Origin: a virus
Taxonomy: Duplodnaviria; Caudoviricetes
Strand: one strand, 5' to 3'
Virus record (IMG/VR): IMGVR_UViG_3300037471_000178
Span: 1,212-65,211 of that record
DNA: 64,000 nucleotides
Position 1 is the stretch's first letter. Each line of letters opens with the position of its first letter. Shown in pieces: positions 8,554-63,792 of this stretch. Position numbers and translations under genes: made by a program. The notes below the pieces were generated by a model. The model was not told the origin of the DNA. It did no database searches and saw only the letters and a list, made by a program, of their open reading frames with translations.

Positions 8554-8901
8554 TTACATCGAGAGGGACAAACCCCCAACGACCAAGTATTTGTCCCGCG
8601 TCATTTCCGCAGGACCGTTGCCAAATAATGCAGCCACCAACTCATCGCGCTTGGCTGGTGCCTGATACCCTGCCTCCGGTACAGCCCGGTACACCCGCAG
8701 CTTCGCCGTTGACCCGACACCATCCTCCAACCAGCCCCTACGCAGCAACCGAACAATGTATGCCCGCATCGTACTGAAAGGGATATCCATGTCGGTTGCC
8801 ATCTGTTTCATCGTGCGTTCCTGCCTGCGGAACTCGTCCATCACCTTCGCCAGTTTCCATTCCAGTTCATCGTTGCGGCCTTCGTCCATCATCGACTCCA
8901 A
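8554..8901 (-). CDS. Winged-HTH-like DNA-binding protein
   Basis: TMKQMATDMDIPFSTMRAYIVRLLRRGWLE...RVYRA. Confidence 0.6.
   Translation of the reverse strand: MESMMDEGRNDELEWKLAKVMDEFRRQERTMKQMATDMDIPFSTMRAYIVRLLRRGWLEDGVGSTAKLRVYRAVPEAGYQAPAKRDELVAALFGNGPAEMTRDKYLVVGGLSLSM
8565..8597. repeat. 33-bp bipartite inverted repeat, copy 1 (intragenic)
   Basis: GGGACAAACCC-N11-GTATTTGTCCC. Confidence 0.8.
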
Positions 8902-9067
8902 TGTTGTCTATTAACCACAGCAAGACGGTGCGGAGTTCGTCCGTCGTCTGTGCCTGTGTAACGATCTGCATGGCTTCACGCTTTTGCAGATGCCGACGTG
9001 CCTGATCCTCGCTGATGCGCAAGTTGTACTGAATGCCCGCTATTTCTTCCCTTGTGAACCCGCGCAT
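8867..9067 (-). CDS. Hypothetical protein
   Basis: 66 aa ORF with GGAG RBS. Confidence 0.55.
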   Translation of the reverse strand: MRGFTREEIAGIQYNLRISEDQARRHLQKREAMQIVTQAQTTDELRTVLLWLIDNIGVDDGRRPQR

Positions 9068-9111
9068 ACTTTCTCCAAAGATAAATCCGGGCGCTAGGCC
9101 CGGATGGTTGG

Positions 9112-9513
9112 TTAGATTTTCTTGCCGCCGTCTGCTTGCCGGTTGGCGATCTGATGATCAGCTCGCTTGGCGTTGTACCGCACCTTCTCTGCGATAGCCC
9201 CGCCAAGGTCCAGCCCTAACGCGCCAGCCAGATCACCGATACGGATAACCGCATCAGCCAGCTCGACTTCAATCATCGGCCTGTGGGGTAGCTTATCATC
9301 TTGTAAGCCTTTGCGATAGCCCTCCGTTGCTTCGGCTACCTCGGTCACAATCAACATCAGCTTGGATAGCACCAGTTCCGGCGTGATCGTCAGTGGTTGT
9401 CCGGTCTGCAGATCAGACCACCAGCCCGCTTTCTCCGCCGCGTTATGACATGTCAGTGCCAGTACCACGCCGGACATGCGCAGCAAGTGTTCGTCCATTT
9501 TGTCGTTGCTCAT
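9112..9513 (-). CDS. MazG-like nucleotide pyrophosphohydrolase
   Basis: LMLIVTEVAEATEG.RK...EVELADAVIRIGDL..LDL..AIAEK..YN..R. Confidence 0.85.
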   Translation of the reverse strand: MSNDKMDEHLLRMSGVVLALTCHNAAEKAGWWSDLQTGQPLTITPELVLSKLMLIVTEVAEATEGYRKGLQDDKLPHRPMIEVELADAVIRIGDLAGALGLDLGGAIAEKVRYNAKRADHQIANRQADGGKKI

Positions 9514-9832
9514 TCTCGATTTCTCCTAGATATTTCCGTCGTCCTTGTGCCTGCCGTTCCATCTTCACGCGCAGTCGCCGCTTCAGACGGTTCGCTTCAA
9601 TATCACGCCTGAATCTGATGTTCAAGTCTTGGTCAACTACCAAATGCTTCTCGTCGCTTCCCTGCCGTACCTGCTTGGATATATGCCAGTCCCGGCAGTG
9701 GGGGCAACGATATGCCACCATCTGCTTAACTTCCTGCTGGATCAGCATGAACTCCTGCGCCGCTACCGCTGCTAACCCGGCGCTCATGTAACGCTTCTTG
9801 CTGGTACAGCCTTTTGCAACGTCGAAGCGCAT
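9443..9832 (-). CDS. Hypothetical protein with CPHCRDWH zinc-ribbon-like motif
   Basis: Start reassigned to MRFDVAKG (GGAGG RBS). Confidence 0.6.
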   Translation of the reverse strand: MRFDVAKGCTSKKRYMSAGLAAVAAQEFMLIQQEVKQMVAYRCPHCRDWHISKQVRQGSDEKHLVVDQDLNIRFRRDIEANRLKRRLRVKMERQAQGRRKYLGEIENEQRQNGRTLAAHVRRGTGTDMS

Positions 9833-10071
9833 CACGCCTCCGCTAGTTTGTACCGCTCCAGAATCTTCGCCTTGATGGAAGCGGGAACCTTCGCCAACGG
9901 ATGCCACCCGACGAAATACTTGTGGCTATCCGCACCCCATATCGTCTTGCCTGCTTCGCAGCCGTCAAAGTTCAGCACGTTCACCATCTGTCCATTCCTC
10001 GGTGCCTCCGGCGTGACCTCCAGCCAGTACACATCGGGATCGACAACGATGCCATCGCTGTTCACTTTCAT
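9832..10071 (-). CDS. Hypothetical protein
   Basis: MKVNSDG... with GGAGG RBS. Confidence 0.6.
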   Translation of the reverse strand: MKVNSDGIVVDPDVYWLEVTPEAPRNGQMVNVLNFDGCEAGKTIWGADSHKYFVGWHPLAKVPASIKAKILERYKLAEA

Positions 10072-10196
10072 TTCAGCCTCCAGAAAAAAGGCCACATGCC
10101 AAGCAGAATCGCTACCATTGTATAAACGGCCATCATGATCACTCTCCCCTTGTGATAACGGGGCTAGCGTAACACGACTAACCCCGTTCTCTTACA

Positions 10197-10364: not shown

Positions 10365-10620
10365 CTTCAATCCTTCGATCTAGTTCATCCAGAAATTCGA
10401 CAAGCGCTTCGCCGGTATGCGCGGCTTTAGCTATGTCGGCGTTCCCGCCCTTATCACGTTCTCGGGCGAGATACGCAATAATAGTTCCTTTCATGTAGCC
10501 ACGATACTCCTCCGGTGTAAGCCAAGCTTTCAGTACTTCCCACGGTTGGTACACACCGAGCTTGTGATAGTGGTCGCCGCCCACCTGCCGGTCTGTTGCG
10601 CGTCGGTTATTTGCAGTCAT
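10315..10620 (-). CDS. DUF3310-family protein
   Basis: QVGGDHY..PWEV..GY.KG.IIAYLAR...KGG..DIAKA.H. Confidence 0.8.
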   Translation of the reverse strand: MTANNRRATDRQVGGDHYHKLGVYQPWEVLKAWLTPEEYRGYMKGTIIAYLARERDKGGNADIAKAAHTGEALVEFLDELDRRIEDGNLQDQSRASSAERR

Positions 10621-10636
10621 GAAACCCCCTCAAGGT

Positions 10637-10661
10637 AAAAAAGCCGGGGTTGCCCCCCGGC
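10637..10661 (-). terminator. Intrinsic terminator
   Basis: GCCGGGG-gcaa-type hairpin followed by TTTTTT on minus strand. Confidence 0.75.
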
Positions 10662-10668
10662 GTTTTGT

Positions 10669-11271
10669 TTAGTGCTTCTGATCATCGTGTTGCGCTAGCG
10701 CCGCATCAATATCAATCGGCTCGTTGCTCGCCTCCTGCGGTGCCGTCACCACGTCCAGAATGTTCTCCAGCGTTTGTTCGTGTCGCTTGTGCATCTGCTC
10801 CATGTGGGTCAGCAACTCCTGAATGCCCATGAGCTGATCCCGAATAGCCAGCACGTCCTGCCGCACAATCGCCACGTCAGCCGCCGTGCTGGTGTCTACG
10901 GCAGGAGACTTGGTCTTGAGGATTTGGTTCACCCCATCGGCAATGGTGTCCATGTCACGACGAATGTGCCGCAACTCCTGCAGGCTGATAGCAGGCGATT
11001 CCGGAGTCTTCGCTACTTCCTTGGGCTTGGGCTTGGTGTGCTCCTCAATGAAATTGTGCAGCCACGCTCTGGCAGGGCCAGCTTCCCACAGCGTTGACGC
11101 CCTTCCGCCTGTTCCGAGCGGGGTCACTACATGCGGGATTTCGGCTTCCTTCATCATGTTCTCAACCTTGGAGTGGTAGCCCACCAGCCCCCGGTTCTTC
11201 AGTTCTGTATAGAAGAAGTTGGTCGGCAGATGAGATATGTCATCCATCGTGCGCTTACGTTTCGCAGTCAT
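10669..11271 (-). CDS. Hypothetical protein with coiled-coil C-terminus
   Basis: 200 aa ORF with AAGGAG RBS. Confidence 0.65.
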   Translation of the reverse strand: MTAKRKRTMDDISHLPTNFFYTELKNRGLVGYHSKVENMMKEAEIPHVVTPLGTGGRASTLWEAGPARAWLHNFIEEHTKPKPKEVAKTPESPAISLQELRHIRRDMDTIADGVNQILKTKSPAVDTSTAADVAIVRQDVLAIRDQLMGIQELLTHMEQMHKRHEQTLENILDVVTAPQEASNEPIDIDAALAQHDDQKH

Positions 11272-11289
11272 TTCTAGCTCCTTGTGAAT

Positions 11290-11322
11290 GGGACAAATCC
11301 CTGAGTGATAAGGATTTGTCCC
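11290..11322. repeat. 33-bp bipartite inverted repeat, copy 2
   Basis: GGGACAAATCC-N11-GGATTTGTCCC. Confidence 0.85.
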
Positions 11323-11328
11323 TGTTGA

Positions 11329-11496
11329 TTACATCTTCTTCCCATCCTGATCCAGACCGAGCGCCAGCATAAGCTTCACCATGCGAGTCTCCATCCGAAT
11401 CAACCGCTGCGTGTTCTGACGATCTATCTCAACGAGTTCGTTGATCTTGACCATCAGCGCATCCAACCTCTCCAAGATCAGCTTGTCATTAAACAT
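11329..11496 (-). CDS. Small coiled-coil hypothetical protein (55 aa)
   Basis: Manual translation MFNDKLILERLDALMVKINELVEID... Confidence 0.55.
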   Translation of the reverse strand: MFNDKLILERLDALMVKINELVEIDRQNTQRLIRMETRMVKLMLALGLDQDGKKM

Positions 11497-13057: not shown

Positions 13058-13276
13058 TTACCGCTTGATACCACGCCAAGACAAACGCTGGAACGCCGAC
13101 TTGTGCACTCTCAGTTCGTGTGCGACTTTAGCGGAAGTAGCCTGAAAACACCAAACCGTCCCGTCCCAATAGCTGTACATGAAGTTGCCGTTGAACCCGC
13201 GCTGATACACACCGACTCGCGCCGGCTTAATCGTGTACGGATACCAGTCCGTCAACTGCAATTTGCGCTTGCCCAT
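13058..13276 (-). CDS. Hypothetical protein
   Basis: 72 aa aromatic-rich ORF coupled to the amidoligase stop (TAATG). Confidence 0.6.
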   Translation of the reverse strand: MGKRKLQLTDWYPYTIKPARVGVYQRGFNGNFMYSYWDGTVWCFQATSAKVAHELRVHKSAFQRLSWRGIKR

Positions 13277-15252
13277 TATGCATTCTCCTCATGCGGGGTC
13301 AGTTCAGTAATCACAGCCGGTGCCGACGCATGCTGACGCGGCATGTACACATTGAAGCCACGCTGCGACAGGTACGTACGCAGGTAACGAGTCTCATGGC
13401 GATTCTCCGGTGCGCTGATGTACTCACAGAACTTCTCGGTTGTGAGGTCAGCCGCCGCATGATCGCGGGAGAACAGCCACGCAGCCTGTGCAAACTCCAC
13501 GCATGCCAGAATGGTGACAGGCATCATGCTGCCCTTGAACACACGAATCTCCACCGTCTTCGGGTTCGTGAAGTTCACCATCTGATAGCGGTCGCCGTCA
13601 GACAAATTCGTGACTGCATTCTCGATCACCTGCTGCCATGTGTAGCCATACGATCTGATCATGCGCTTGATGTTGCCACCCAAAGACCGCTTGGTGTTGT
13701 ACTGCACGTTCGCCTTGTCCTTGCCCTCGGCAACCTTGGCATAGTTCACCGAGTACCGGCGAGCGATGGCCTTGATCAGTTGCTTGTTTGCCGGGTCGTT
13801 GTAGAACGCTTGCATCTTCACCGCATGCATCAGCGACTTCGGCTTGGCCAGATGCACATGCAGACCACAGGACGAGCGGGCATCATGGCTGTGCAGCAGG
13901 CGACGATACGGCAGCTTGCCATCTTCACCACGACCGAAAATCTTCTCGATGTGATAGCGATGCACTTCCGCCGAACCATACGACGTAACCATTTCAAAGC
14001 CATACGACACCGAACCGTCACGCTCCAAGAACGCATAGCCCGGAACCCTCTTGCCATTCCAACCTTCCGGCTTGGCATTCAGGATACGGCCCATCACACG
14101 CTGCGCTGCATCCTCACGATCCCCCTCGCAGCCGGGGACACACTCCATTTCCAGTTCAACGCCGATGGTCAGGCCGTTGAAGTGAGTGCCATCCAGATTC
14201 GGCAGCGCACCGATGCGACGCTTGGACGAGTGATACTCACCAATCACAGGCGGCGGCTGATGGGTACGCTTGCTGCCATCCGGCCATGTGTACCCACGGA
14301 AGTCAGTCCGTGCCAGTACTTCGACACCAATCTCGTTGAGCAGAGTATGCGTCTGGATTCCCTGCATGCAGTGCTGGCAGTACGACTCTTCACCATGACG
14401 CGACATGACCTCAGCGATGCGGTTGACGAACTCATAGTGACCGCAGCCAGCAGGACTAACCGGGTTGTCCGGGTGCTTGGCGTGCCACACGTTGAGCGCT
14501 ATGCTCATATTGGCCGAGTTTACTGACGTACGGATGGAGTTCAAGAACTGGTATCCATCACGACCTTCCTCGACACGCTTGGCTGCCTTGGCGATAGCCT
14601 GCAGCGCGGTCTTCACCTGATTGGCCTGCTCGGTGTGCGGCTTCCATGTGCTGACCCTGATCCACGGATACGATCCGGGCTGGATTGCTTCCTTGCGACC
14701 AGCCGCGCCGAACTTGTTCATCGAGCAGCGACGATTGAACTCAAGCTCGGCCAGCTTGTTGTACATCTTCTGCTTGAAGTTATCCAGCACCGACGAGCGG
14801 CTGTGGTCGATGTTCCAGCGCACATACGCCATCATCGACGTTGAACCCCGGCGCATCGTATCCTCTTCCTCGTTGCGGGCATTGAGGATGCGGATATGCT
14901 GGCGATTAACCGCTACCGTCAAGAGCTGCTTGGGCAAGCCATCACGCCCTGCAGCGAACTGATCGTTGTTGATCCGCATGATCGCCACGGTAGTCGATAG
15001 ACCGCACAGCGGGCGAATCATAGCCAGCCTGCGCTCGCTGTTATACGACACGCATACGCCACGGAACTGCGACGAGATACGAGTGCGGCCCCACGAATGA
15101 TCCTTGACATCAACTCGCACAAACATACCCGGCTTGAGAATCTGACCGCGCTTGACGGTATTCTCTGCGGTCATCACTGGTGCAAGGAAGCTGTCCAGAG
15201 TTACTTCGTTGCCGCGCAGGAGTTTGCTAGCGAAGATGGTTTGAGTGGTCAT
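13276..15252 (-). CDS. Putative amidoligase (COOH-NH2 ligase, Amidoligase_2-like)
   Basis: TIGVELEME, ERDGSVSYGFEMVT, SCGLHVH, RYQMVN, TVEIRVFKGS. Confidence 0.82.
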   Translation of the reverse strand: MTTQTIFASKLLRGNEVTLDSFLAPVMTAENTVKRGQILKPGMFVRVDVKDHSWGRTRISSQFRGVCVSYNSERRLAMIRPLCGLSTTVAIMRINNDQFAAGRDGLPKQLLTVAVNRQHIRILNARNEEEDTMRRGSTSMMAYVRWNIDHSRSSVLDNFKQKMYNKLAELEFNRRCSMNKFGAAGRKEAIQPGSYPWIRVSTWKPHTEQANQVKTALQAIAKAAKRVEEGRDGYQFLNSIRTSVNSANMSIALNVWHAKHPDNPVSPAGCGHYEFVNRIAEVMSRHGEESYCQHCMQGIQTHTLLNEIGVEVLARTDFRGYTWPDGSKRTHQPPPVIGEYHSSKRRIGALPNLDGTHFNGLTIGVELEMECVPGCEGDREDAAQRVMGRILNAKPEGWNGKRVPGYAFLERDGSVSYGFEMVTSYGSAEVHRYHIEKIFGRGEDGKLPYRRLLHSHDARSSCGLHVHLAKPKSLMHAVKMQAFYNDPANKQLIKAIARRYSVNYAKVAEGKDKANVQYNTKRSLGGNIKRMIRSYGYTWQQVIENAVTNLSDGDRYQMVNFTNPKTVEIRVFKGSMMPVTILACVEFAQAAWLFSRDHAAADLTTEKFCEYISAPENRHETRYLRTYLSQRGFNVYMPRQHASAPAVITELTPHEENA

Positions 15253-15282: not shown

Positions 15283-15315
15283 GGGACAAGTCCTTAACCA
15301 CTAAGGATATGTCCC
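15283..15315. repeat. 33-bp bipartite inverted repeat, copy 3
   Basis: GGGACAAGTCC-N11-GGATATGTCCC. Confidence 0.85.
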
Positions 15316-15333
15316 CGGTACTGCGGGTCTAGC

Positions 15334-15726
15334 TTAGTGCAACGTCGGGTTATCGTCCTCGTCAATCGGAAACTGCTGTTGCTGCGGTAGAACTTCTGCA
15401 TCGCCACGCTCGATCAGATCACCAAGCGCGTCCATGATCTTGTTGAGCAGCTTGATCTGGCGCAACTCACCAAACACGCGGTCGAATGAGCGGGTCATAT
15501 CTTCCTTCGTCCATGCGCTGTTGCCAACGATCACCGATGCATCATCGAAGTAGCGGTTGATGATCATGTCGTCACGCGCCTTCTCATACGCTGCCTTATC
15601 GCCGGTTTCGTACACAGCGAGAACCGCTTTCACTGTTTCAATCGGGATCAGGTCACGCAGGGATTCGGCTTGGCTCAGGCCGATGTAGACGCCTTTCTTC
15701 AACTCGACTTGCTGTTCCGCTTTCAT
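15334..15726 (-). CDS. Hypothetical protein
   Basis: Start reassigned to MKAEQQ (AAGGAG RBS). Confidence 0.6.
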   Translation of the reverse strand: MKAEQQVELKKGVYIGLSQAESLRDLIPIETVKAVLAVYETGDKAAYEKARDDMIINRYFDDASVIVGNSAWTKEDMTRSFDRVFGELRQIKLLNKIMDALGDLIERGDAEVLPQQQQFPIDEDDNPTLH

Positions 15727-15740: not shown

Positions 15741-15773
15741 GGGACATTTCCCCGGCCCTTGGGGATTTGTCCC
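15741..15773. repeat. 33-bp bipartite inverted repeat, copy 4
   Basis: GGGACATTTCC-N11-GGATTTGTCCC. Confidence 0.85.
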
Positions 15774-15824
15774 GGTTGGTTATGTGCTGCTTGGGCCTTA
15801 CTGTTTCGATCTACTATGAGACAT

Positions 15825-15853
15825 ATTATACATGAGTGTAAGCGTCATGTCAA
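15825..15853 (-). promoter_or_regulatory. Sigma70-type promoter TTGACA-N17-TATAAT
   Basis: Perfect consensus; GCTTACA in spacer; 21 nt spanning the -10 box and start region identical to the promoter at 19992-20020. Confidence 0.88.
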
Positions 15854-16048: not shown

Positions 16049-16081
16049 GTGTTTCTCCTCGTTAAAATGCAGTCATGAAAA

Positions 16082-17539: not shown

Positions 17540-17594
17540 ACAGCAGCGTCGTCACCGATGCGCTCAGCGCGAACAGTATCAATGCAGTCATGAT

Positions 17595-18778: not shown

Positions 18779-19004
18779 TCCGGTCTGCTCCTTGTTGGGT
18801 TACGGCTCACGGCTATCAGCAGCCACTCGCCATCATAGTTGTTCGCATTTACCACATCGTACCTAACGTCATACAACGCAGACGGCCAGTGTGCCGCCAC
18901 TGTGCGCGTATCACCGTTCTGTATCGCCCTGTTCAACGCTGCGTAGTTCGCATAACGCTTGAGCACATACACCATCTGCCCTTCGGCGTTCAGCGATGCA
19001 GTCA
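18631..19004 (-). CDS. Hypothetical protein
   Basis: Probable start MTASLN; 3' end overlaps the next ORF, boundaries uncertain. Confidence 0.4.
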
Positions 19005-19009
19005 TGAAT

Positions 19010-19379: not shown

Positions 19380-19412
19380 GGGACATATCCCCGGCAATCA
19401 AGGATATGTCCC
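19380..19412. repeat. 33-bp bipartite inverted repeat, copy 5
   Basis: GGGACATATCC-N11-GGATATGTCCC. Confidence 0.85.
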
Positions 19413-19418: not shown

Positions 19419-19589
19419 CTACAGCTTAGTGAGCCAGATGATGTTGGTCGCCGCGCCGATCCATGCAGCGATCTGACCCGGCAGCACCACCGCAGCTATG
19501 ATGCCGAGTCCAACGATCAGCTTGATAGCTATGACACGCTCAACGTGAATAGCCTTGACCTCCCACTTGTGGATTTTGATTGTACGCAT
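19419..19589 (-). CDS. Small membrane protein (56 aa)
   Basis: MRTIKIHKWEV...; GGAGG RBS; TAATG coupling to upstream gene. Confidence 0.6.
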   Translation of the reverse strand: MRTIKIHKWEVKAIHVERVIAIKLIVGLGIIAAVVLPGQIAAWIGAATNIIWLTKL

Positions 19590-19907: not shown

Positions 19908-19940
19908 GGGACAGGTCCTTGGTTAGTGGGGAACTGTCCC
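19908..19940. repeat. 33-bp bipartite inverted repeat, copy 6
   Basis: GGGACAGGTCC-N11-GGAACTGTCCC. Confidence 0.8.
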
Positions 19941-19991
19941 GCGTTGCTCTTTACTGCCGCCGATGTGTACTGATTAACTACTATGAGACAT

Positions 19992-20020
19992 ATTATACTG
20001 CTATGTAAGCGTAATGTCAA
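19992..20020 (-). promoter_or_regulatory. Sigma70-type promoter TTGACA-N17-TATAAT
   Basis: Perfect consensus; GCTTACA in spacer. Confidence 0.88.
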
Positions 20021-20275
20021 CTATTTGTCCCTGCGCACTTTCACACCCAAGCTCTCCCAGAACTGCAATTCTTGGGCTGTTCGGCGCGGTCGAAGCTCTC
20101 TGCCTACCACATCATCCCCATCCCATGCGTTCGGGTCTGCTTCCATTTTGCGCAGCCGCGTGAGTAACTGGTTGCGCGTCTTGCATGCGCAGCGATGGTC
20201 GAGCAGCCATTCATCAATCGTCTTGAGTTCGCCGAAAGCAAATATGTGCTTATCTGCGCGCTTGTTTGCAGTCAT
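20021..20275 (-). CDS. Small protein paralogous to the C-terminal domain of the adjacent HNH protein
   Basis: AFGELKTIDEWL...LLTRL vs AFGETKTITAWL...MLARL. Confidence 0.7.
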   Translation of the reverse strand: MTANKRADKHIFAFGELKTIDEWLLDHRCACKTRNQLLTRLRKMEADPNAWDGDDVVGRELRPRRTAQELQFWESLGVKVRRDK

Positions 20276-20287
20276 GATTTCCTCCTA

Positions 20288-20848
20288 TCAAAACGTGGCA
20301 TCACTACGTTTAGCCCGCTTGCGCGGTTGCTGCTCGGCAAACAAAAGTTCCTCGTTGGTTCGCCTAGCCTGCACTTGCTTCTGCACCACGTCTTCAAACG
20401 TCCATTCGTGACCACGGTTCAGCTTGTCTAGCCTAGCTAGCATCTGCTTGCGATTCACTACGCAACGCGGATCATTCAGCCATGCCGTGATTGTCTTGGT
20501 TTCACCAAAGGCAGTGAACTCACGCTCAGGCTTGCCGCCAAACTTCTCCTCCGCATACTTCGACTTGAACCGGCTAACCTTCATGTGCGCAGGATTTACA
20601 CACGATGGATTGCCGCATGTGTCATGCAGATACATTGCATCATCAAAATCAGGATGCTCGCGCAGGTATAGCACCTTGCGAACCGATCTTGTCTTGCTTT
20701 CAATGCTGATGACAGGGTTATGTCCATAGGTCATCGAGCCTTGCCACAAGTAACAACCCGGCACCGACTTGGTATCAAGCAACTGGTGGGCGCGGATACG
20801 GAAACTGTCCCACGCTTTCTGTGTCATGCCGTACGGATATGTGCTCAT
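20288..20848 (-). CDS. HNH-like endonuclease with C-terminal DNA-binding domain
   Basis: CYLWQG...HDTCGNPSCVNPAHM. Confidence 0.7.
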   Translation of the reverse strand: MSTYPYGMTQKAWDSFRIRAHQLLDTKSVPGCYLWQGSMTYGHNPVISIESKTRSVRKVLYLREHPDFDDAMYLHDTCGNPSCVNPAHMKVSRFKSKYAEEKFGGKPEREFTAFGETKTITAWLNDPRCVVNRKQMLARLDKLNRGHEWTFEDVVQKQVQARRTNEELLFAEQQPRKRAKRSDATF

Positions 20849-21316
20849 GTTTGCTCCTTGGTTGAAGAGTTTGCATTGTACTGCGCATTAGACTACATCG
20901 CAATCGTATCAATACTATCTTGGCTAGCGTGTTGTCAGGCCGCGACTAATAGCAGAAATACCTATTCAAGCTGTCAGTTAATATAACCGCGTTTTCTAAT
21001 ACATGGATAGCGAACTAGGTGTGTGTTCTCCCCAAGACGCTAATCTAGGCATGTGTAAGTGAGGGCCATGATTCGTGTGGAATGTCAAATTGGGGCTGCG
21101 TGACCTATATTTATTTATCTATCTAATAGAACAAATAATGAACTGAGAGAAATCCAATGATTAGATATTTTCGCTAATAACCACGAATACGGGCTTGCCA
21201 GCTAGCCTTTCTAGTCTAGTAGCGAACATCTTTACGAGTGCCCGCCGCTGTCGAAAAATGCAGTCATGATTTTGCCTGTATCGCAGCATGCCACACTGTG
21301 CTAGCTACGTTGCACC

Positions 21317-21349
21317 GGGACAGATGCGCAGCGAGTACGGAAATGTCCC
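21317..21349. repeat. 33-bp bipartite inverted repeat, copy 7
   Basis: GGGACAGATGC-N11-GGAAATGTCCC. Confidence 0.75.
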
Positions 21350-22208: not shown

Positions 22209-22236
22209 ATTATAGTACATATCTGTAAGCTTACAA
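22209..22236 (-). promoter_or_regulatory. Sigma70-type promoter TTGTAA-N16-TATAAT
   Basis: Consensus -10; overlaps the palindrome TGTAAGCTTACA. Confidence 0.7.
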
Positions 22237-22257: not shown

Positions 22258-22290
22258 GGGACAAATCCTTAATCGGCACGGAAATGTCCC
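22258..22290. repeat. 33-bp bipartite inverted repeat, copy 8
   Basis: GGGACAAATCC-N11-GGAAATGTCCC. Confidence 0.85.
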
Positions 22291-22418
22291 CGTCCTAGAC
22301 TGGCTAGCTGGACTGGACTTGGCTAGCCCGGAGGGGAGGGGTATGGACCAACGCGAGCAGCCGACCCACCCCACCCTTAGCTATCGCTCTTTACCGGGAG
22401 TAGAGTTTTTGAAATCAC

Positions 22419-22447
22419 TTGTAAGCTACGTATCCATCACGTATAGT
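22419..22447 (+). promoter_or_regulatory. Sigma70-type promoter TTGTAA-N17-TATAGT
   Basis: Near-consensus; divergent from the early promoter at 22209-22236. Confidence 0.55.
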
Positions 22448-34569: not shown

Positions 34570-34578
34570 GGAAACAGC

Positions 34579-36570: not shown

Positions 36571-36579
36571 GGAAAAACC

Positions 36580-52817: not shown

Positions 52818-55800
52818 ATGGCATCCATCACCGATATCATCAACGGCTACTTCGACAACCGGCCTGACCCGGCTGCGGCCCCCGCGCCCATGCCGGGTAA
52901 CACCGGCAATGCGGCGACCGACCTGATGGATCGCCTCGTCGGTGCGATCCGCAATGTCGAATCGGGCGGCAACCCGAACGCGGTCAGCCCGCAGGGTGCG
53001 TCCGGTTCCATGCAGATCATGCCGGGTACGTTCCGTCAGTACGCCATGCCCGGTGAGTCGTATTACAACGACGAGCACCGCACGGCTGCCGCGATCCGCA
53101 AGATCAAGGACGACTGGAACTACTTCAACGGCGACCCGATGAAAGTCGCCGCTGCCTATATCGGTGGGCGCGGCGCGGTCCTGCCTGACGGCACGATCAA
53201 GGATTCGGTGCGTGACGCGCACGGCACTAGCCCCGCTATGTATGCCCGCATGGTCGCTGGCCGCATGCAGTACGACCCATCGCAGGGTGCAGCCGGTCAG
53301 CTCCCTTCCAGCGAGCCGATGCCTGCCGACTACTCCGACATTGCTAACTCGGTACTGAACGCTGGCGCGAAAGCCATCGGCGGCTTGCCGCCCCCACCCC
53401 CGCCGAAGACCGGCCTGATGCGTCGCTTGGGCGACACCGGCATCGACTTGGCGAAGGGTGCTGTGGACGCTGGCTCCGCTGTGACTGGCTTGGCGCGGCT
53501 TATCCCCGGCGTCGGCACGGTGCTGGATGCGGCAGGCTACGATCCGGAAGCGACCAACCAAATCTTCTCCCGTGGCTACTCCCCGGCACGTACCGCTGCC
53601 GAACAGGAAGTCGCTCAGGCTGGATTCCAGCGCGAAGGCACCGGCTTCTGGAATGAGGCTGGCGGTGCGATTGGCGATCTGCTTCAGCATCCGTCCGTGG
53701 CATTCGGTCGCGGCGTCGAAGCCCTGCCCTCGATGATGCTCGGCGCGACCGGCGCTCGCGCTGCCGCCATGCGCGGCGTTACCAACGTCGGTGCGCTCAA
53801 GACGCTCGGCGCTATCGGTGAAGGCGCTGTCTCCGCTGGTCAGACCGCGACCCAGATTGCGCAGTCCAACCCGGACGGTAACGTGTACGCGGCTATCCCC
53901 GCTGGCGTTCTCACCGGCCTGATCAGCCGTGGCGCTGCCGCCATCCCAGGATTCGGTGACGCCAAGACTGCCGTGATGACTGGCGTGGGCGCTGCTGGCG
54001 CAACGGGCGGCCTGCTGCGGCGTGTCGGCAAGGGCATGATCTCCGAAGGCATCCTTCAGGAAGCCCCGCAGTCCGCGCAGGAACAGATGTGGCAGAACAT
54101 CGGCACTGGCGACCCGCTCATGAAGGGCGTCGGCGCTCAGGCTGGTCAAGGCTTGGCGCTCGGCGTCATGCTCGGCGGCATGGAAGGTGCGATGCACAAG
54201 AACCACGGCATGCCGAATCAGACTGGCGGCGAGGCGCAGGAACAAGCCGCTCCGGTGCTGGCGCAGGACTCCACCGGCCAGATGAACCTGCTGTCGCCAA
54301 ACGACATGCCTGCACAGCCCACGCAGGTGATGCGTCCGGCTGACGCTGTGGCTGGCCCGCTGCCCGAAGGTGTTCGCACCCCGGCGCAGATGGACCTGTT
54401 CGGTGCGCCGCAGATGATGAGCAACCCGGCGCAGATGGAACTCCCGTTTGACGAGCGCCGTGCTGCCGCGCCGCAGGCACCTGCCACTTCTGCGCAACTG
54501 GAACTGCCGCTCAATCCTCCGGCCCGCGATATCATGGCACCGGAGCATGCGGCTGACCAACTGGCGCAGGCCAAAGAACAAGGCGCGATTGAACGCCTCG
54601 ACCAAGCTCAGGGAAATGTTGTAACGCCGCAGCTAGCACAGCAGCAGGATCAGATCGCCGGTACGCTGCACGAAGCGTCGAACCAGCCGCAGGTACAGAC
54701 CCCACAGATCGAGATTCCCGGTCAGGTCCAGCCGGGTGCTGGCGGTGTCGTCGCGTCGGAAAAGCCGAAGACCATCTACGAGATGCAGATGGAAGCCCGC
54801 CGCAAGGCGTCCGCTGGCGAACTCCTTAGTCAACAGGAAGCCGTGTTGCTGACCCTGCCGGTTGAGCCGCCGCATCCGAACGCCAAGATCGAAGTTCCCC
54901 AAGCGCCGAACACCAAGCCAGCCGAGCCACAGCAGGGCGAAATGTTTGGCAAGGTGCTAGACCAGCAGCCGGGACAAATCCCCACCAACCAAGGAAATGT
55001 CCCCGTCGAAGGCAAGCAGCCCGGTCAGGCAGAAATGTTCGACCAGCGCGGCAACCCGACCTACGCTGCCGAACAGACCGCAGACCCGAAAGCCATCGCG
55101 GAACAGTTCGGCAAAGAGTTCCGCATCAAGGTCACTGACCGGCGCATGCCGATCATGGCGCAGATCGGTCGCGCCCTGAACGACAACAAGATCAGCTTTG
55201 ACGATGCCACCCACCTTGCCGAAGCCGTCCGTGCTGGCAAGCTGAAATTCGCTGAGACTTCGCTAGCGTCGTCACTGGCAGAAAATGTCCCGCAGGCCAA
55301 GCCGGGGACAAATGCAGTCATGACCGAGGGACAAAATCCCGAGGCTCCGGCAGAGGCTCCGCAGTCCATCATGGGCACACCGCTGGAGGATGCTCACGCC
55401 AAGAACTACGAAGTCACCAACGGCTCGATTCAGGACGCGAACATTCACGAACTGTACGCGGCTGCCGAGGAAGGCGACCACCCGACGTTCTCCGTCAACG
55501 ACGCCGAGAAGGAACTGGCACGACGCTACTCCGATCAGTCCGGTAACATTCCGGAGCAAGATCAGAGAGTTGCCGAGCGGTACTTCAATATGAACTTCCC
55601 CGAGGCGCGGGCGCGTGAAGCGTACCTGCGTCAGCTTGCGCATGAGCGCGAGGGTGCGAAGGGCATGGCGTCGTGGCGTGAAGGCGAGAAGGGAGAGGGA
55701 GTGAGCGCCAGCGCAGCCAAAGCCGTCGCCGACGCAATGACGAACAAGTGGAAGAACGCGCCGCAAGTCGAAGTGGTAGAGAGCCGCGATGACTTCCCGC

Positions 55801-58800
55801 CCGAGCTTCGCAAGGAAGCCGAGGATGCCAACGTCAACCCGAAGGCGGGCTACTGGCGCGGCAAGGTGTACGTCATCGCCAGCAACCATTCCTCGCTTGG
55901 CGACGTGGCAGCTTCCATCCTGCACGAGATCACCGGCCATCACGGACTGGACGCGCTGCTTGGCGACTCCAAGAAAACCGTGATGAATCAGATTTACAAC
56001 GGCAACCCCGAAATCCGCAAGGCCGCTGACGCGATGATGGCGCAGGAAGGTCTGGACAAGGAAACCGCCGTGGAGGAAGTGCTGGCAGACATGGCCGAGA
56101 AGGGCCGCGTCAAGCCGAGCGTTCTGGAGAAGATTGGCAACGTCATCCGTGCCGGTCTGCGCAAGATCGGTCTGGGCAGCATCGCCTCCGGCGTGACCAA
56201 CGGCGAAGTGAAAGAGATTCTGGCGAACGCTCGCAAGGCAGTCGAACAGGGTACGGAAGCTGCACCGTCCGACAAGGCGGTGTACCGGCAGGAAGCCAAG
56301 CCATCGCTGGACGACATTCCGGAACCGAAGGCTGGCACGTTCCTCGACCGGATGAAGGACACCTTCGGAGGTCTTGGCACCAAGCCAGCCGTGCTTGGCT
56401 TCATGACTCTGCGCCAACTGGTTGACCGCTTCGGCGGTTCCGTCCCGGCGCTGAAGCGGCTTGCCGACGCACAGATCAAAATGTCCTCGATGGCCAAGCA
56501 CCTGCAAGGCGAAATCGAAGGCATCGACCGTGGATTCGAGAAGCTGTCGGACAAGGAATCGCTGGACCTGTCCAAGCTGATGATCGACGCGACGATGGCA
56601 CGGATGCACCCGGACATGGCGTTTGACGCCGACGAGAACAGCCATCTGGATCGTGCGCTGCGCGACGATCATCAGGCGCTTGCGGACCGTTATAACAACA
56701 TGCCCAAGCACATGAAGGAGCTGTACCAGCAGACCAAGGCCAAGTTTGAGTCTGACTGGAAAAAGACCAACGACCTGATCCGCTCAGCCATCATCGACCA
56801 GTATCGTGCCGAAATGACCGAGCGCGGCATGGACGCCGACAAGATTTCGGAAATCAAAAAGACCGAAGACCGCGTGGCGTTCAAGAAAACGCTGAAGACT
56901 ATCTCGGATCGTCGGCTGGCGTCGCACCTGTGGGATGACATGGATCAGCATGCATACCAGCTCTCGCAGATGCAGGGTCCGTACTTCCCGCTGATGCGCT
57001 TCGGCCAGCATGCGGTGGTTGCCAAGTCCCTCGGCCTGCGCAACGCGCAGGAAAGTCTGGACCGGGCGCGTGAGGCTCTGGCTGACCTGTACCGTCAGGA
57101 CGATGACACCTACGACAAGAAGGAACTGGCTGACCGTCGCAAGGCTGTCACCGATGCGCAAGCCGCGCTCAATGCGTACAAGCGCGACAGCAAGCAGTAC
57201 CTTGTCGAGTTCTACGAGAGCCAAGCGGAAGCCGACGCTCGCGTGAAGCAGATCAAGGAACACTTCGGCGACGACCCGAGCATGCAGGTGGAGCGCAAGC
57301 TGCGTGAGGCGCACTTCCGCGAACTGGACTCGGCACCGTATGGCTTCATGAAGAAGCTTGAGGAAGAAATCGCTGCCAACCTGCCGACCAAGGATTCGTC
57401 CGCGATCAAGCAGGCCGTGCGCGATCTGTACATTCGCCAGATGCCGGAACAGGCTGCACTCAAGCAGCAGCTCAAGCGCCTGAACGTGGCGGGTGTGAAG
57501 GCTGGCGAAATGCGCCGCGCTGTTATCAGCGCCGGTCTGCGGAACTCGTTCAACATTTCCCGCATGTCGTACGGCAGCGAGTACAACGCGGCGCTGGATG
57601 AACTGCGCCACGGCGATACCGACGAAGCCAAGCTACTCGGTGAGGAAATGGCGAAGCGCACGATGCAGCTTATGGCTCCGTCCTCGCAGAACAGCATCAT
57701 CAACGGGCTGTCGAACATCAGCTACGTGGTGAACCTCGGTCTGTCGCCATCGTTCCTCGCGCTGAACCTGTTGCAGCCGTGGACCGTATCGGCCCCGATC
57801 ATGGCGGCGCGTCACGGCCTGCTCCCGTCCGGCAATGCGCTGATGCGGGCAACCGGCGAAGTGGCAAAGGCGATGGCAAAGTCGTACAAGCAGGACGGTC
57901 TGAAGTTTGAACTGGACCTGAATCTGTTCAAGGACGATGAGCAGCGCATGCTCAAGGAACTGCTGGATCGCGGCGTTATCGACGTGACGCAGGACTACGA
58001 TCTTCGCGCTGCTGCCGCTGGTCAGACCGAAGGCATCACCGACAAGATGGCGAAGATTTCTTCGCTCCCGGCGCACCACACGGAAATCGTCAACCGGGTA
58101 GCCACCGCGCTAGCCGCGTACCGCCTTGAGAAATTATTGGATGCCAAAAACGGCACTAATTTCGCCACGCAGTATGCGGAGAAGGTTGTGGCCGACACCC
58201 ACCTTGACTACACCGCAGAGAATGCGCCGCGCCTGATGCAAGGCTCCAACGCTGGCGGTCTGGGTAAGCTGTTCTGGCAGTTCAAGAAGTACCAGCAGGG
58301 CATGATTTACCTGAACTTCAAGCTCATCAAGGATGCGATTGCGGAAGGTACGCTGACCGGCGAATCGGCCAAGGGCGCGATGTACCTGACGGGTGCGAAC
58401 CTTGCCATCGCTGGTGCGGTCGGAACCCCGCTGACGGCCCTAGCCTCGCTAGCCATGACCATCGCTGGCGCGTTCGGTCCGGATGACAAGGACAAGGAAT
58501 ACAAGCAGCAGTTCTACGCGGGCCTGAAGGATTCGCTTGGCGAGACTGCGGCGCGGCTGATCATGAAGGGCGCACCCGCTGCCTTCCTCAACATCGACGT
58601 ATCGGATCGTGCCGGTATGGGCGATATCCTGAACCCGCTGAAGTTTGCGCGTCAGGGCAACCATGGACAGGATACCGTCGCCAACTCGCTGTTCGCGCTG
58701 GCTGGCCCGACCGCTTCGCTGGCTGCGAACTGGTACGACGGTATCGACGCGCTAATGCACGGCAAGCCGATGGATGCTGCCCGCGTCGTGGCTCCGCGCT

Positions 58801-59243
58801 TCATGCAAGGTCCGATTGATGCGTACCGCATGGCTGACCAAGGCTTGCAGACGCAGCGCGGCAACACGTACATGAAGCCGGAAGACCTGTCGGCGTGGGA
58901 CATTGCTAGCAAGGCGCTCACCTTCAAGTCGGCTGACGTAGCCGATCTGCAAGACTCGCGCCGTGCGCTGGACAATGCATCGCATGCTCGGGATGCAGCG
59001 CGGCACGAACTCATCAACGAGTACGCCAAGACCAGCTTGCAGGGCGGGGACATGGATGCGATCCGGCAGAAGATCGCGGAGTTCAACGAGCGGCATCAGG
59101 GCGAGCGCGGTGTGGTGATCAACCAGTCGGCGCTGCTCAAGGCGCGGCAGTCGCAGAAGCAGTACGAGCGCGACTTGCGTAACGGGGTGCGGGTAACAAA
59201 GCAGAACCGCGCTCTGGCCGATGAACTCGGTATCCGCAAATGA
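52818..59243 (+). CDS. Giant internal virion / polyvalent protein with N-terminal lytic transglycosylase
   Basis: VESGGNPNAVSPQGASGSMQIMP.TF (SLT); ILHEITGHHGL zincin-like motif; helical LPD38-like C-terminus. Confidence 0.85.
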   Translation: MASITDIINGYFDNRPDPAAAPAPMPGNTGNAATDLMDRLVGAIRNVESGGNPNAVSPQGASGSMQIMPGTFRQYAMPGESYYNDEHRTAAAIRKIKDDWNYFNGDPMKVAAAYIGGRGAVLPDGTIKDSVRDAHGTSPAMYARMVAGRMQYDPSQGAAGQLPSSEPMPADYSDIANSVLNAGAKAIGGLPPPPPPKTGLMRRLGDTGIDLAKGAVDAGSAVTGLARLIPGVGTVLDAAGYDPEATNQIFSRGYSPARTAAEQEVAQAGFQREGTGFWNEAGGAIGDLLQHPSVAFGRGVEALPSMMLGATGARAAAMRGVTNVGALKTLGAIGEGAVSAGQTATQIAQSNPDGNVYAAIPAGVLTGLISRGAAAIPGFGDAKTAVMTGVGAAGATGGLLRRVGKGMISEGILQEAPQSAQEQMWQNIGTGDPLMKGVGAQAGQGLALGVMLGGMEGAMHKNHGMPNQTGGEAQEQAAPVLAQDSTGQMNLLSPNDMPAQPTQVMRPADAVAGPLPEGVRTPAQMDLFGAPQMMSNPAQMELPFDERRAAAPQAPATSAQLELPLNPPARDIMAPEHAADQLAQAKEQGAIERLDQAQGNVVTPQLAQQQDQIAGTLHEASNQPQVQTPQIEIPGQVQPGAGGVVASEKPKTIYEMQMEARRKASAGELLSQQEAVLLTLPVEPPHPNAKIEVPQAPNTKPAEPQQGEMFGKVLDQQPGQIPTNQGNVPVEGKQPGQAEMFDQRGNPTYAAEQTADPKAIAEQFGKEFRIKVTDRRMPIMAQIGRALNDNKISFDDATHLAEAVRAGKLKFAETSLASSLAENVPQAKPGTNAVMTEGQNPEAPAEAPQSIMGTPLEDAHAKNYEVTNGSIQDANIHELYAAAEEGDHPTFSVNDAEKELARRYSDQSGNIPEQDQRVAERYFNMNFPEARAREAYLRQLAHEREGAKGMASWREGEKGEGVSASAAKAVADAMTNKWKNAPQVEVVESRDDFPPELRKEAEDANVNPKAGYWRGKVYVIASNHSSLGDVAASILHEITGHHGLDALLGDSKKTVMNQIYNGNPEIRKAADAMMAQEGLDKETAVEEVLADMAEKGRVKPSVLEKIGNVIRAGLRKIGLGSIASGVTNGEVKEILANARKAVEQGTEAAPSDKAVYRQEAKPSLDDIPEPKAGTFLDRMKDTFGGLGTKPAVLGFMTLRQLVDRFGGSVPALKRLADAQIKMSSMAKHLQGEIEGIDRGFEKLSDKESLDLSKLMIDATMARMHPDMAFDADENSHLDRALRDDHQALADRYNNMPKHMKELYQQTKAKFESDWKKTNDLIRSAIIDQYRAEMTERGMDADKISEIKKTEDRVAFKKTLKTISDRRLASHLWDDMDQHAYQLSQMQGPYFPLMRFGQHAVVAKSLGLRNAQESLDRAREALADLYRQDDDTYDKKELADRRKAVTDAQAALNAYKRDSKQYLVEFYESQAEADARVKQIKEHFGDDPSMQVERKLREAHFRELDSAPYGFMKKLEEEIAANLPTKDSSAIKQAVRDLYIRQMPEQAALKQQLKRLNVAGVKAGEMRRAVISAGLRNSFNISRMSYGSEYNAALDELRHGDTDEAKLLGEEMAKRTMQLMAPSSQNSIINGLSNISYVVNLGLSPSFLALNLLQPWTVSAPIMAARHGLLPSGNALMRATGEVAKAMAKSYKQDGLKFELDLNLFKDDEQRMLKELLDRGVIDVTQDYDLRAAAAGQTEGITDKMAKISSLPAHHTEIVNRVATALAAYRLEKLLDAKNGTNFATQYAEKVVADTHLDYTAENAPRLMQGSNAGGLGKLFWQFKKYQQGMIYLNFKLIKDAIAEGTLTGESAKGAMYLTGANLAIAGAVGTPLTALASLAMTIAGAFGPDDKDKEYKQQFYAGLKDSLGETAARLIMKGAPAAFLNIDVSDRAGMGDILNPLKFARQGNHGQDTVANSLFALAGPTASLAANWYDGIDALMHGKPMDAARVVAPRFMQGPIDAYRMADQGLQTQRGNTYMKPEDLSAWDIASKALTFKSADVADLQDSRRALDNASHARDAARHELINEYAKTSLQGGDMDAIRQKIAEFNERHQGERGVVINQSALLKARQSQKQYERDLRNGVRVTKQNRALADELGIRK
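54971..55003. repeat. 33-bp bipartite inverted repeat, copy 9 (intragenic)
   Basis: GGGACAAATCC-N11-GGAAATGTCCC. Confidence 0.85.
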
Positions 59244-63200: not shown

Positions 63201-63419
63201 AAGGGATTTCGCCGCAATAACATGCTCCTGCGTGCGGGAACCCTCGCTATCGAAAGACGTTGTGCCGAAGTACCAGTTCGCTTCGATGTACGCATGTTTT
63301 ATCGTTCCTTCAACAAGTTCCGCCAGTGTCTCGTACCACAGGTGTTGCTTACGCGGTCCCATCAGGACGTACCGCCCTACGGACGGCAGTATCCGCGTGT
63401 AAAACGAAAGGATATCCAC
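60189..63419 (-). CDS. Primase-helicase (AEP/RepB-like primase + Zn-binding region + DUF927-like helicase)
   Basis: LRLDLD, VDSGEGLHIYY, DSARVLRP.GG.H; Cys cluster; GSGFGKTA, YFIDEVTN. Confidence 0.82.
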   Translation of the reverse strand: MDILSFYTRILPSVGRYVLMGPRKQHLWYETLAELVEGTIKHAYIEANWYFGTTSFDSEGSRTQEHVIAAKSLRLDLDAGAKKLEKHGPKKVYATKQEAIAHVVDFAKWSNLRPSLIVDSGEGLHIYYCFDRDFPSMDVWLLCARMLDRLAKTFGLKVDNAVTKDSARVLRPVGGLHPSGAVVKVLKSMGDLTLEEFSAAFKAVQHELIPDAAAPKASSGVNADVLASPMVKVESSVAKVAQKCQWVADNLAAKGNVGYTDWLNMLALYKASIEGVDGALEWSSGHPEFDPAEVTIKIESLTGGPPTCDRVSDECDACRSCEHFGKIKTPFSLGKATDAEIAKLRPKAEAEDEGGAFSAEEAVVADKKEDAFKDAAKDDCTEELIAVGQIPEKWLKPTELVPFNTESPFFIGKGSHNRMVLGCYVRRKIKVEGGEVTRYERLLLTEQPFYVREFVSGGSVTLVYLEHYDSHLANKAMWTETEVTFESLSEERDFRKLMNRLGIMAKDAAKHKEVMNMLHAYTRANLAMLRQKRNGDVFRHRFGFQFLNDEPVYVQGAYKVNSDGVTERCFLSGSLRNLKGGYEIPGIPSDDLPDFKGDFYSEVILPKARQYCEGIKAMYGDASNASLTPFALGWYIGVASSYLTFVTQEVPQVGLEMPGMGFVLSFYSQGSGFGKTALQRAIMRAYGDSELNKAGGDRRSGGSAIAVGVHMASRGSLPYFIDEVTNNKPDEVSEMIHKISIGKDKVRAQRDGSAATYTGSWTSIATMSSNRSLRLALTEHRNHSQAEQMRLLEINFDKVDPEKLDRVRFEESMEKIVTPATGALGMLLGRYGVMNWNAMRDRATAIKHKVTEQFGLTQAERYFAAIYAAAKLAGEVMKEVGILPVDEEVMDAAFADVIRAIRGYVNQTITTPAEHAEEMIRTLMPRFIRTNTETRRTGFTSDEYDEVHNLHMLDQKSIAGRYVVADNKVYVVYSEFQQWCNEVGTDWRSLLRDWKNEGLLVSMPHLKVITAGIHPAKIASMRHKVIELSLNRLNSVSMPTEGEAPDNIVHFSRQESASAPEGDNHATPQRSDSADR

Positions 63420-63482
63420 GAATGCCCCTTGCGCTGAAAAGTTTTTATTCTCGGGTCAAAGTGTAAGTGAAGGCAATACCTT

Positions 63483-63746
63483 TCACATTACACCGTTGAC
63501 TCTTTCGTAAATGGTTTGTTTCCGTTCCTCACCTTTCAGCCGGGGTGATACCGGCAATGCGCCCTTCTCCACGCAGAGCTTGATGCGGAAGATCAGGTCG
63601 TCAATCTTATCTTTGTGCAACTTATGCGGGCTGAACTTGCCGCGCATCCACTTGTTCACCGTCAATCGTGACACGTTGGCAATCGCTGCCAGTTCGCCTT
63701 GGGTGATCCCGGCGTCACGCACCGGCTCAAACATATCAGGTTCCAT
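63483..63746 (-). CDS. XRE-like HTH transcriptional regulator
   Basis: AGITQGELAAIANVSRLTVNKWMRG. Confidence 0.82.
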   Translation of the reverse strand: MEPDMFEPVRDAGITQGELAAIANVSRLTVNKWMRGKFSPHKLHKDKIDDLIFRIKLCVEKGALPVSPRLKGEERKQTIYERVNGVM

Positions 63747-63759
63747 ATTTCCTCCGGGT

Positions 63760-63792
63760 GGGACAAATCCCCATCGACTGAGGATTTGTCCC
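63760..63792. repeat. 33-bp bipartite inverted repeat, copy 10 (upstream of HTH gene)
   Basis: GGGACAAATCC-N11-GGATTTGTCCC, about 14 bp before the HTH start codon. Confidence 0.88.

Follow-up and report, generated by a model that had tools for sequence, protein, structure and literature searches.

Background

Dispersed dyad repeats are already known in phages. The RNase III sites of T7 comprise about ten related hairpins, in the leader and between cistrons, which form irregular helices of ~20 bp that are recognized by shape. The stoperators of Cluster A mycobacteriophages (the L5 gp71 sites), as summarized in PMC4351075, are 13-bp asymmetric sequences that point in the direction of transcription and serve as binding sites for a temperate phage's immunity repressor. 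Cluster O mycobacteriophages carry >30 genome-wide copies of a 17-bp palindrome, TGTTCGG-N3-CCGAACA, with 7-bp arms and a 3-bp spacer (PMC4351075). In Cluster K, the extended start-associated sequences (ESAS) have 17-bp arms separated by a spacer of 4 to 13 bp and are coupled to a 13-bp start-associated sequence (SAS) at the ribosome-binding site (PMC3203893). The promoter early stem-loops (PeSLs) of T4-type phages place a terminator-like stem-loop just upstream of a near-consensus sigma-70 early promoter (PMC2839356, PMC4122927), and the p4 protein of phi29 binds AACTTTTT-15 bp-AAAATGTT as two protomers (PMC1904284, PMC3100819). Here, we describe a 33-bp bipartite inverted repeat, GGGACA-N21-TGTCCC, that is new in sequence and layout and occurs ten times in 64,000 nucleotides of tailed-phage DNA (referred to here as the window; bases 1212-65211 of the 65,211-bp virus record IMGVR_UViG_3300037471_000178). 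Our preferred reading, which we hold tentatively and at a little under an even chance, is that the ten sites are the operator set of a symmetric phage DNA-binding protein that controls early leftward transcription.

Ten copies of a single site

An exact search for GGGACA-N21-TGTCCC returned ten sites in the window, starting at 8565, 11290, 15283, 15741, 19380, 19908, 21317, 22258, 54971, and 63760. These are exactly the ten that an initial annotation of this DNA had listed, and they had 0 matches in 100 dinucleotide-preserving shuffles, which rules out a chance origin. No further copy of the 33-bp site was present in the 1.2 kb outside the window, so there are none more in the whole record. 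There were also no degenerate copies with 3 or fewer mismatches across the 22 specified positions, and the hexamers did not recur at any alternative spacing. The site family is all-or-none. The copies are dispersed, with 0.5 to 9 kb between them, and a CRISPR-like or tandem array was therefore rejected.

Block structure of the site

Conservation among the ten copies is confined to four sharply bounded blocks (6+3 and 3+6 bp). Pairwise identities by position were as follows.

Positions 1-6 and 28-33: 100%; all 120 outer-hexamer bases are unchanged.
Positions 9-11: 93%.
Positions 23-25: 87%.
Positions 7-8, 12-22, and 26-27: ~40%.

Each 11-bp arm consists of GGGACA, then two mostly A/T positions, and then TCC, and the centers of the two arms are 22 bp (~two helical turns) apart. 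In the inner triplets, T9/C10/C11 and G23/G24/A25 are conserved at 90 to 100%, and at the intervening positions 7-8 and 26-27, 35 of 40 bases (87%) are A or T in a genome of 58% G+C. Given that the outer hexamers are invariant and that the inner triplets retain 87 to 93% identity, versus ~40% between them, selection has acted on the sequence and not on pairing alone. We conclude that the site family is real and is under block-wise sequence selection.

The initial annotation had described the outer 6+6 bp and the spacer length as invariant and the spacer itself as variable. The first statement stands, because no hexamer base varies and no other spacing recurs. The second is correct in that positions 12-22 are only ~40% identical, but the spacer is not fully variable: positions 12-14 and 20-22 keep a YYR...YRR pattern that is purine/pyrimidine-complementary in 29 of 30 cells (by-eye tally). 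The center has diverged to this extent and yet its length is constant, which points to a constraint on geometry: a single base pair would turn a half-site by ~34 degrees, but a 7-nt RNA loop could probably absorb a change of ±1 nt.

Genome setting and placement of the copies

Judged by its genes, the record represents an uncultured podovirus-like tailed phage of the HMO-2011/Rhizobium-phage-like type; its portal protein shares 38% identity with its counterpart in Rhizobium phage RHph_TM3_14A and 27% with those of HMO-2011-type phages. The ends of the record share a direct repeat of exactly 127 bp (1-127 = 65085-65211). Because this is the size of a common assembler k-mer overlap, the map was treated as circular; it probably is circular, with the terminal repeat being an assembly overlap, and a 324-aa open reading frame (ORF) spans the record ends. 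A leftward early/replication block runs from ~22,220 through position 1, across the record ends, to ~59,900. It encodes a helicase, a family-A DNA polymerase, PD-(D/E)XK and VRR-NUC nucleases, a primase-helicase, a Gam-like protein, a DksA/TraR-type zinc finger, and many ORFans. A rightward block (~22,940 to 59,800) encodes terminase, portal, major head, tail, and internal virion proteins. Nine of the ten sites are in the leftward block, and the tenth is inside a late virion gene. Among the ORFs scanned, no phage RNA polymerase was found, and neither an integrase nor a recombinase was detected by Pfam or PHROGs; no other sign of lysogeny was seen. The ten copies are placed as follows.

8565-8597: copy 1, within the final 14 codons of ORF 8554-8892; the ATG of 8074-8529 is 35 nt downstream.
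11290-11322: copy 2, intergenic, with the stop of 11329-11454 7 nt before it and the ATG of 10669-11271 18 nt after it.
15283-15315: copy 3, intergenic, with 15334-15726 on one side and the amidoligase-like gene 13276-15252 on the other.
15741-15773: copy 4, at ~+46 to +78 of promoter 15853-15825, with an ATG at 15726, 14 nt on.
19380-19412: copy 5, intergenic, past the stop of 19419-19589.
19908-19940: copy 6, at ~+46 to +78 of promoter 20020-19992.
21317-21349: copy 7, in a mostly non-coding gap of 559 nt, 19 nt past the intrinsic terminator 21386-21369.
22258-22290: copy 8, 21 bp upstream of the -35 element of promoter 22236-22209 (~-56 to -88).
54971-55003: copy 9, in frame within 52818-59243, supplying 11 residues of a P/Q-rich linker.
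63760-63792: copy 10, between the stop of the record-spanning 324-aa ORF and the ATG (13 nt off) of 63483-63746.

The copies at 11290, 15283, 19380, and 63760 each lie between a stop codon and the next Shine-Dalgarno sequence, and seven copies are 13 to 49 nt upstream of a minus-strand start codon. The earlier description of most copies as lying upstream of ribosome-binding sites thus holds, except that copy 22258 precedes a promoter instead; it is situated in a gap of ~780 bp between the divergent early and late blocks. Two copies had been assigned to coding sequence and one to a position ~14 bp upstream of a helix-turn-helix (HTH) gene of the XRE type, and we found all three there: 8565 in the tail of ORF 8554-8892, 54971 in a 2141-aa gene, and 63760 ending 13 nt before the ATG of 63483-63746. 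The 2141-aa product (52818-59243) is a DarB-like/transglycosylase virion protein whose gene is transcribed opposite to the early block. Three leftward promoters accompany the copies.

19992-20020, minus strand: promoter 1, perfect TTGACA-17-TATAAT.
15825-15853, minus strand: promoter 2, perfect TTGACA-17-TATAAT.
22209-22236, minus strand: promoter 3, TTGTAA-16-TATAAT, with the site located upstream.

The two perfect promoters are in near-identical cassettes of ~50 bp (15811-15853 and 19978-20020, minus strand) that have an identical 21-nt -10/start segment in common. In both, the distance from the -10 element to the site is exactly 51 nt, and the 37-nt leader between is only ~38% identical (by-eye alignment count). 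GCTTACA directly follows the -35 element in all three leftward promoters, and a site-like half (20021-20031; 9/11 matches) abuts the -35 element of promoter 20020-19992. No strong promoter reads into copy 22258 on either strand, where the best sigma-70-like match was 8 to 9 of 12.

Two simple roles were rejected. The sites are not promoters of the next gene, since three copies are only 13 to 18 nt from the ATG, and they are not intrinsic terminators, since no copy is followed by a T run on the sense strand.

Recognition as DNA or as RNA

We counted paired cells over a 14-bp stem on both strands, using as a control the 3' arms shuffled among the copies (500 shuffles). On the minus (sense) strand, 86.4% of the cells were paired, compared with 85.8% after shuffling (213 of 500 shuffles were as high); on the plus strand, the values were 81.4% and 81.8%, respectively. 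The partner arm of any copy therefore fits as well as its own, i.e., there is a consensus without covariation. Both central arm pairs were Watson-Crick in four copies, compared with 2.5 expected under independence (P = 0.18), and no compensatory changes beyond column composition were found among the ten copies.

The initial annotation had argued that arms that follow the consensus independently and often mismatch each other indicate a DNA-binding site. Mismatches are indeed frequent (positions 7/27 and 8/26 are unpaired in 5 to 6 of the 10 copies), and the lack of covariation and the invariant spacing both favor that argument. So do copies 22258 and 54971, which are perfect even though their positions would not let them act in a sense early transcript: the former has no strong promoter into it, and the latter is in an oppositely transcribed late gene.

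The main rival, which we consider possible but rather unlikely, is that the sites are transcribed RNA hairpins that punctuate the early polycistronic messages for processing, stabilization, or insulation of translation. Such a hairpin would have a 6-bp lower stem, an optional 2×2 internal loop, and a 3- to 8-bp upper stem, and it may be recognized by a sequence-specific RNA-binding protein or nuclease. Placement is in its favor, with eight of the ten copies in leaders or intercistronic gaps that are transcribed in the sense direction, 4 to 30 nt from the next Shine-Dalgarno sequence; the two copies just mentioned are not so placed, 54971 being antisense in its message. In folding predictions, the hairpin behaves as a self-contained module (-15 to -25 kcal/mol; z from -1 to -6), and none of the six longer contexts paired it with the Shine-Dalgarno sequence. 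Against this reading are the absence of covariation, the unpaired mid-stem positions, the constant loop length, and a lower stem whose sequence is more invariant than structure demands. RNA stability did not single out one strand consistently: the minus (sense) strand was better in seven copies and the plus strand in three, and these three include both promoter-proximal copies, for which the antisense strand gives the better fold. In T7, the number of processing hairpins between cistrons is comparable. The stems here, however, are 11 to 16 bp and in most copies do not continue into the flanking sequence, a length that is short for RNase III, and a T7-type site was rejected because the ~20-bp two-turn helix is not reached. 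No known RNA family or tRNA was found for the sites, and Rfam gave no match.

Hairpins might also form in single-stranded DNA, with the minus strand as the lagging-strand template of a leftward fork and the sites as priming or loading signals for the primase-helicase. The strand asymmetry common to several copies, including the late-gene copy, and the primase-helicase gene that adjoins one copy would fit such a role. We nevertheless regard it as extremely unlikely, because folding with DNA parameters gave hairpins of low stability (-3.6 to -12.6 kcal/mol) that did not clearly favor either strand and because the copies are clustered rather than genome-wide.

A proposed operator model and the points against it

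Building on the observed site family, its block structure, its placement, and the absence of covariation, we infer the DNA level of action, the mode of reading, and the direction of regulation of the operator set as follows. One sequence-specific, two-fold symmetric phage protein would bind all ten copies, with the 11-bp arm as the half-site. The two half-sites each fit one consensus independently and are in fixed helical phase; as the arm centers are 22 bp apart, both would be on the same face of the duplex. A recognition element would enter the major groove at the invariant hexamer, and the adjacent A/T pair would be read via the minor groove, so that A and T could swap freely and independently in the two arms. 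The A/T preference without discrimination between A and T at positions 7-8 appears to fit such minor-groove readout beside a major-groove contact. The bound protein would then shut down or tune transcription of the leftward early genes by the host RNA polymerase. Downstream of the two strongest promoters (+46 to +78) and between cistrons, it would be a roadblock, and at the third promoter it would bind close to the promoter itself, at -56 to -88. The constant 51-nt distance between the -10 element and the site at both consensus promoters speaks for this reading, and the p4 sites of phi29, a lytic phage, offer a precedent for a two-part inverted repeat with a long spacer (PMC1904284).

Several observations weigh against this model. 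No site overlaps a -35 or -10 element, a roadblock ahead of the genes for DNA polymerase and primase would reduce replication functions too, and the proteins proposed for the sites are candidates. The dyad symmetry extends into the spacer at the purine/pyrimidine level, as tallied above. At the center, T16/G18 recurs on the minus strand of six copies and on the plus strand of none, a weak strand-specific consensus, and G.U-type cells outnumber A.C-type cells on the sense strand (13 versus 6). Finally, three copies are preceded by the 8-mer ACTAAGCT, always on the same strand. The spacer dyad, the G.U excess, T16/G18, and ACTAAGCT are more easily reconciled with a transcribed hairpin or an oriented element than with a symmetric dimer. 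There are only three ACTAAGCT occurrences in the window, each 4 to 17 nt upstream of a site, and TAA is the stop codon of the upstream gene in two of them.

15331-15338, minus strand: ACTAAGCT.
19423-19430, minus strand: ACTAAGCT.
63797-63804, minus strand: ACTAAGCT.

Candidate binding proteins

HTH-type proteins are encoded beside two site copies, and three genes in all are candidates for the proposed binding protein.

63483-63746, minus strand: candidate binder, an 87-aa XRE-type HTH protein (Pfam HTH_3, 4e-5; PHROG repressor families, ~1e-4).
8554-8892, minus strand: candidate binder, a 112-aa winged-helix-like protein, with weak support.
8074-8529: candidate binder, a homing endonuclease of the HNH (His-Me finger) type that ends in a C-terminal HTH and whose gene immediately precedes that of the DNA polymerase.

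The HTH_3 gene is in the middle of the replication operon, with no obvious promoter overlapped by the site. ORF 8554-8892 has no Pfam hit and a weak PHROG regulator match (phrog_2030; E=1e-3). Its look-alikes in the ESM Atlas are winged-helix proteins of the MarR/ArsR/DUF977 type (0.93; template modeling [TM] score, 0.5 to 0.6), and its single-sequence AlphaFold model was poor (predicted local distance difference test [pLDDT], 52), too low for a fold search. The HNH gene has a paralog at 20288-20848, and 20021-20275 is a stand-alone paralog of the C-terminal half of the 20288-20848 product.

The initial annotation had proposed that an autoregulated HTH protein silences the early genes through stoperator-like roadblocks. 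The tests favor the DNA-site part of that proposal, but silencing by an autoregulated HTH protein is conjectural, given the mid-operon position of the HTH_3 gene and the weak HTH likeness of 8554-8892. The proposed roadblocks are in keeping with the many intra-operon copies; because the phage shows no integrase in the ORFs scanned and no other sign of lysogeny, however, "stoperator" is an analogy and not a membership.

Relatives and database searches

A megablast search against 50,697 phage records gave no match. Pattern scans of viral (IMG/VR) and JGI metagenome contigs returned 3 and 116 stretches, respectively, none of them related to this phage (dc-megablast, blastn). A host repeat of the repetitive extragenic palindromic (REP) type was rejected, as one genome each of 185,579 species yielded only scattered unrelated hairpins and GGGACATGTCCC arrays. 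In an unrelated AT-rich viral contig, a segment (L006, 5428-5660) repeats a 100-bp unit three times in tandem. Every unit contains a perfect long hairpin, and the 11-bp arms and the spacing at the hairpin's core are those of our sites; the number of such matches is about that expected by chance (rough estimate).

Relatives were found through the DNA polymerase (51 to 56% identity), three of them being near-complete (52 to 56%). No recurring bipartite inverted repeat of any sequence was found in 14 polymerase relatives and three whole related genomes, and no homologs of the candidate binders were found in the three near-complete relatives (tblastn; E<=1e-3). Conservation in related phages had been put forward by the initial annotation as a check, and its outcome was negative: the motif family is absent from the three near-complete relatives and is thus not conserved at that evolutionary distance. 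The lack of both the motif and the candidate proteins is compatible with a lineage-specific regulator-operator module and proves nothing. The HTH protein had one homolog (58% identity), on a 1.7-kb Logan contig. An ORFan flanked by two site copies had no homolog among 5.8 billion proteins, and the late-gene linker around copy 54971 had none in the relatives. One related phage contains a non-coding cluster (L010, 1281-1865) of seven ATTAATCCA repeats, including a 16-bp palindrome, which looks like an iteron or origin region and not a dispersed family.

Possible cassette structure of the early region

The genes from 22,220 to 10,669, among which are eight of the sites, have no homolog in the three near-complete relatives except for one small hit, and by this comparison the early region is hyperplastic. 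A second motif, the 11-mer TCATGACTGCA, recurs nine times in the window, always on the minus strand (1.3 occurrences expected with one mismatch allowed).

5327-5337, minus strand: TCATGACTGCA.
8521-8531, minus strand: TCATGACTGCA.
10612-10622, minus strand: TCATGACTGCA.
16068-16078, minus strand: TCATGACTGCA.
17583-17593, minus strand: TCATGACTGCA.
18997-19007, minus strand: TCATGACTGCA.
20267-20277, minus strand: TCATGACTGCA.
21259-21269, minus strand: TCATGACTGCA.
55313-55323, minus strand: TCATGACTGCA.
55281-55340: three half-site-like fragments plus TCATGACTGCA, in the late DarB-like gene, ~280 bp from copy 54971.

At the gene starts 8529, 10620, 17591, and 20275, TCATGACTGCA gives the ATG and the first two codons (Met-Thr-Ala) of unrelated early genes, and at 21267, it heads an orphan 11-codon frame, 49 nt past copy 21317. 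The late-gene fragments are within 60 bp and in the orientation of the early block, and one is fused to TCATGACTGCA.

These features bear on a further explanation, that the sites are boundary repeats of early-gene cassettes whose short homology lets recombination shuffle, duplicate, and delete early genes. The homology would be provided by the palindromes, the promoter cassettes, and the shared TCATGACTGCA gene starts, and the two HNH endonucleases may help. The eight copies occupy a 12-kb region of genes without homologs in the relatives, with the one small exception, and the promoter-leader-site unit is duplicated. The fragments fused to TCATGACTGCA have the appearance of scars, and the orphan 11-codon start past copy 21317 and the HNH endonuclease paralogs and fragment copy near 8565, 19908, and 21317 are further points in favor of cassette exchange, for which the PeSLs provide a precedent (PMC4122927). 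Indeed, the late-gene fragments and the duplicated promoter-leader-site cassette, taken as an analogy, resemble T4-type PeSL shuffling, with a different order of elements. Microhomology alone, however, fails to explain block-wise purifying selection, free loops, and a fixed length, and no recombinase was found in the ORFs scanned. We consider this explanation improbable as the role of the sites, although it could coexist with an operator or hairpin role. The recombination points that the initial annotation had offered as its alternative have only circumstantial support, from the late-gene motif fragments and the hyperplastic setting.

A related idea, very improbable in our view, is that the sites are strand-specific folded-DNA sites for recombination or nicking at early-cassette borders, used by one of the HNH-HTH endonucleases or by an unrecognized recombinase. 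If so, this would be a lytic phage with integron-like capture and reshuffling of early genes, and the late-gene fragments fused to TCATGACTGCA would be footprints of such events. An integron attC-like site as such was rejected, since no recombinase was found in the ORFs scanned and the site has a fixed length, versus the nearby tyrosine recombinase gene, variable length, and extrahelical bases expected for attC sites.

Other features of the genome

The palindrome GCTAGC occurs 46 times in the window, compared with ~16 expected, and is dense at 22290-22860, the non-coding gap between the divergent blocks, which might hold origin or packaging signals. A thymidylate synthase gene (27312-27938) is within the rightward structural block, between the portal and head genes. 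On the minus strand, 33652-39171 is an open frame of 1839 codons, antisense to three tiled plus-strand tail/virion genes and without a family hit; it is probably a shadow frame, though unusually long.

Comparison with known systems

If the sites are operators, as we tentatively prefer, they would constitute a regulon that is compact and unusually clean, in an uncultured lineage of podoviruses that has been little studied and depends on the RNA polymerase of its host. Ten all-or-none sites with a split 6+3 half-site and a two-turn spacing would hint at how such phages stop their early genes, and the sharp block structure makes DNA versus RNA recognition directly testable.

The family is like the stoperators in its many scattered copies within non-structural operons, mostly in short intergenic gaps and away from promoters, and in its proposed action of blocking elongating RNA polymerase. 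It differs from them in being a 33-bp palindrome of an apparently lytic phage with candidate binders only; it has a weak central asymmetry, whereas a stoperator is an asymmetric site oriented with transcription. With the Cluster O palindrome, it shares invariant arms, a variable A/T-rich center, a dispersed distribution that is partly intergenic and partly coding, and an absence of lysogeny genes, but here there are 10 copies with a split 6+3-bp arm and an 11-bp center, almost wholly in the early block. The ESAS are likewise imperfect inverted repeats just before the starts of non-structural genes, with arms that fit the consensus and not each other; unlike in the ESAS, the spacing here is fixed and the SAS is absent.

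The phi29 p4 sites also form a long-spacer bipartite inverted repeat in the early/late control of a lytic phage, and p4 reads A/T tracts indirectly. However, they are few and at one divergent promoter cluster, their sequences are unrelated, and no p4-like protein was identified here. The T7 RNase III sites differ from the present family in that its stems are 11 to 16 bp and its sequence is invariant. As for the PeSLs, the combination of a sigma-70 promoter, a conserved stem-loop, a Shine-Dalgarno sequence, and a start codon in hyperplastic, ORFan-rich early regions is shared, and our copies are concentrated in just such a region of lineage-specific ORFs. The order of stem-loop and then promoter is found at one of the three promoters, since only copy 22258 directly precedes one; at the other two, the site is downstream, and six copies are without a promoter. 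Dispersed phage repeats have been described mainly from mycobacteriophages and T4-type phages, with functions that are mostly unknown, and the ten sites add a Gram-negative-type case to them.

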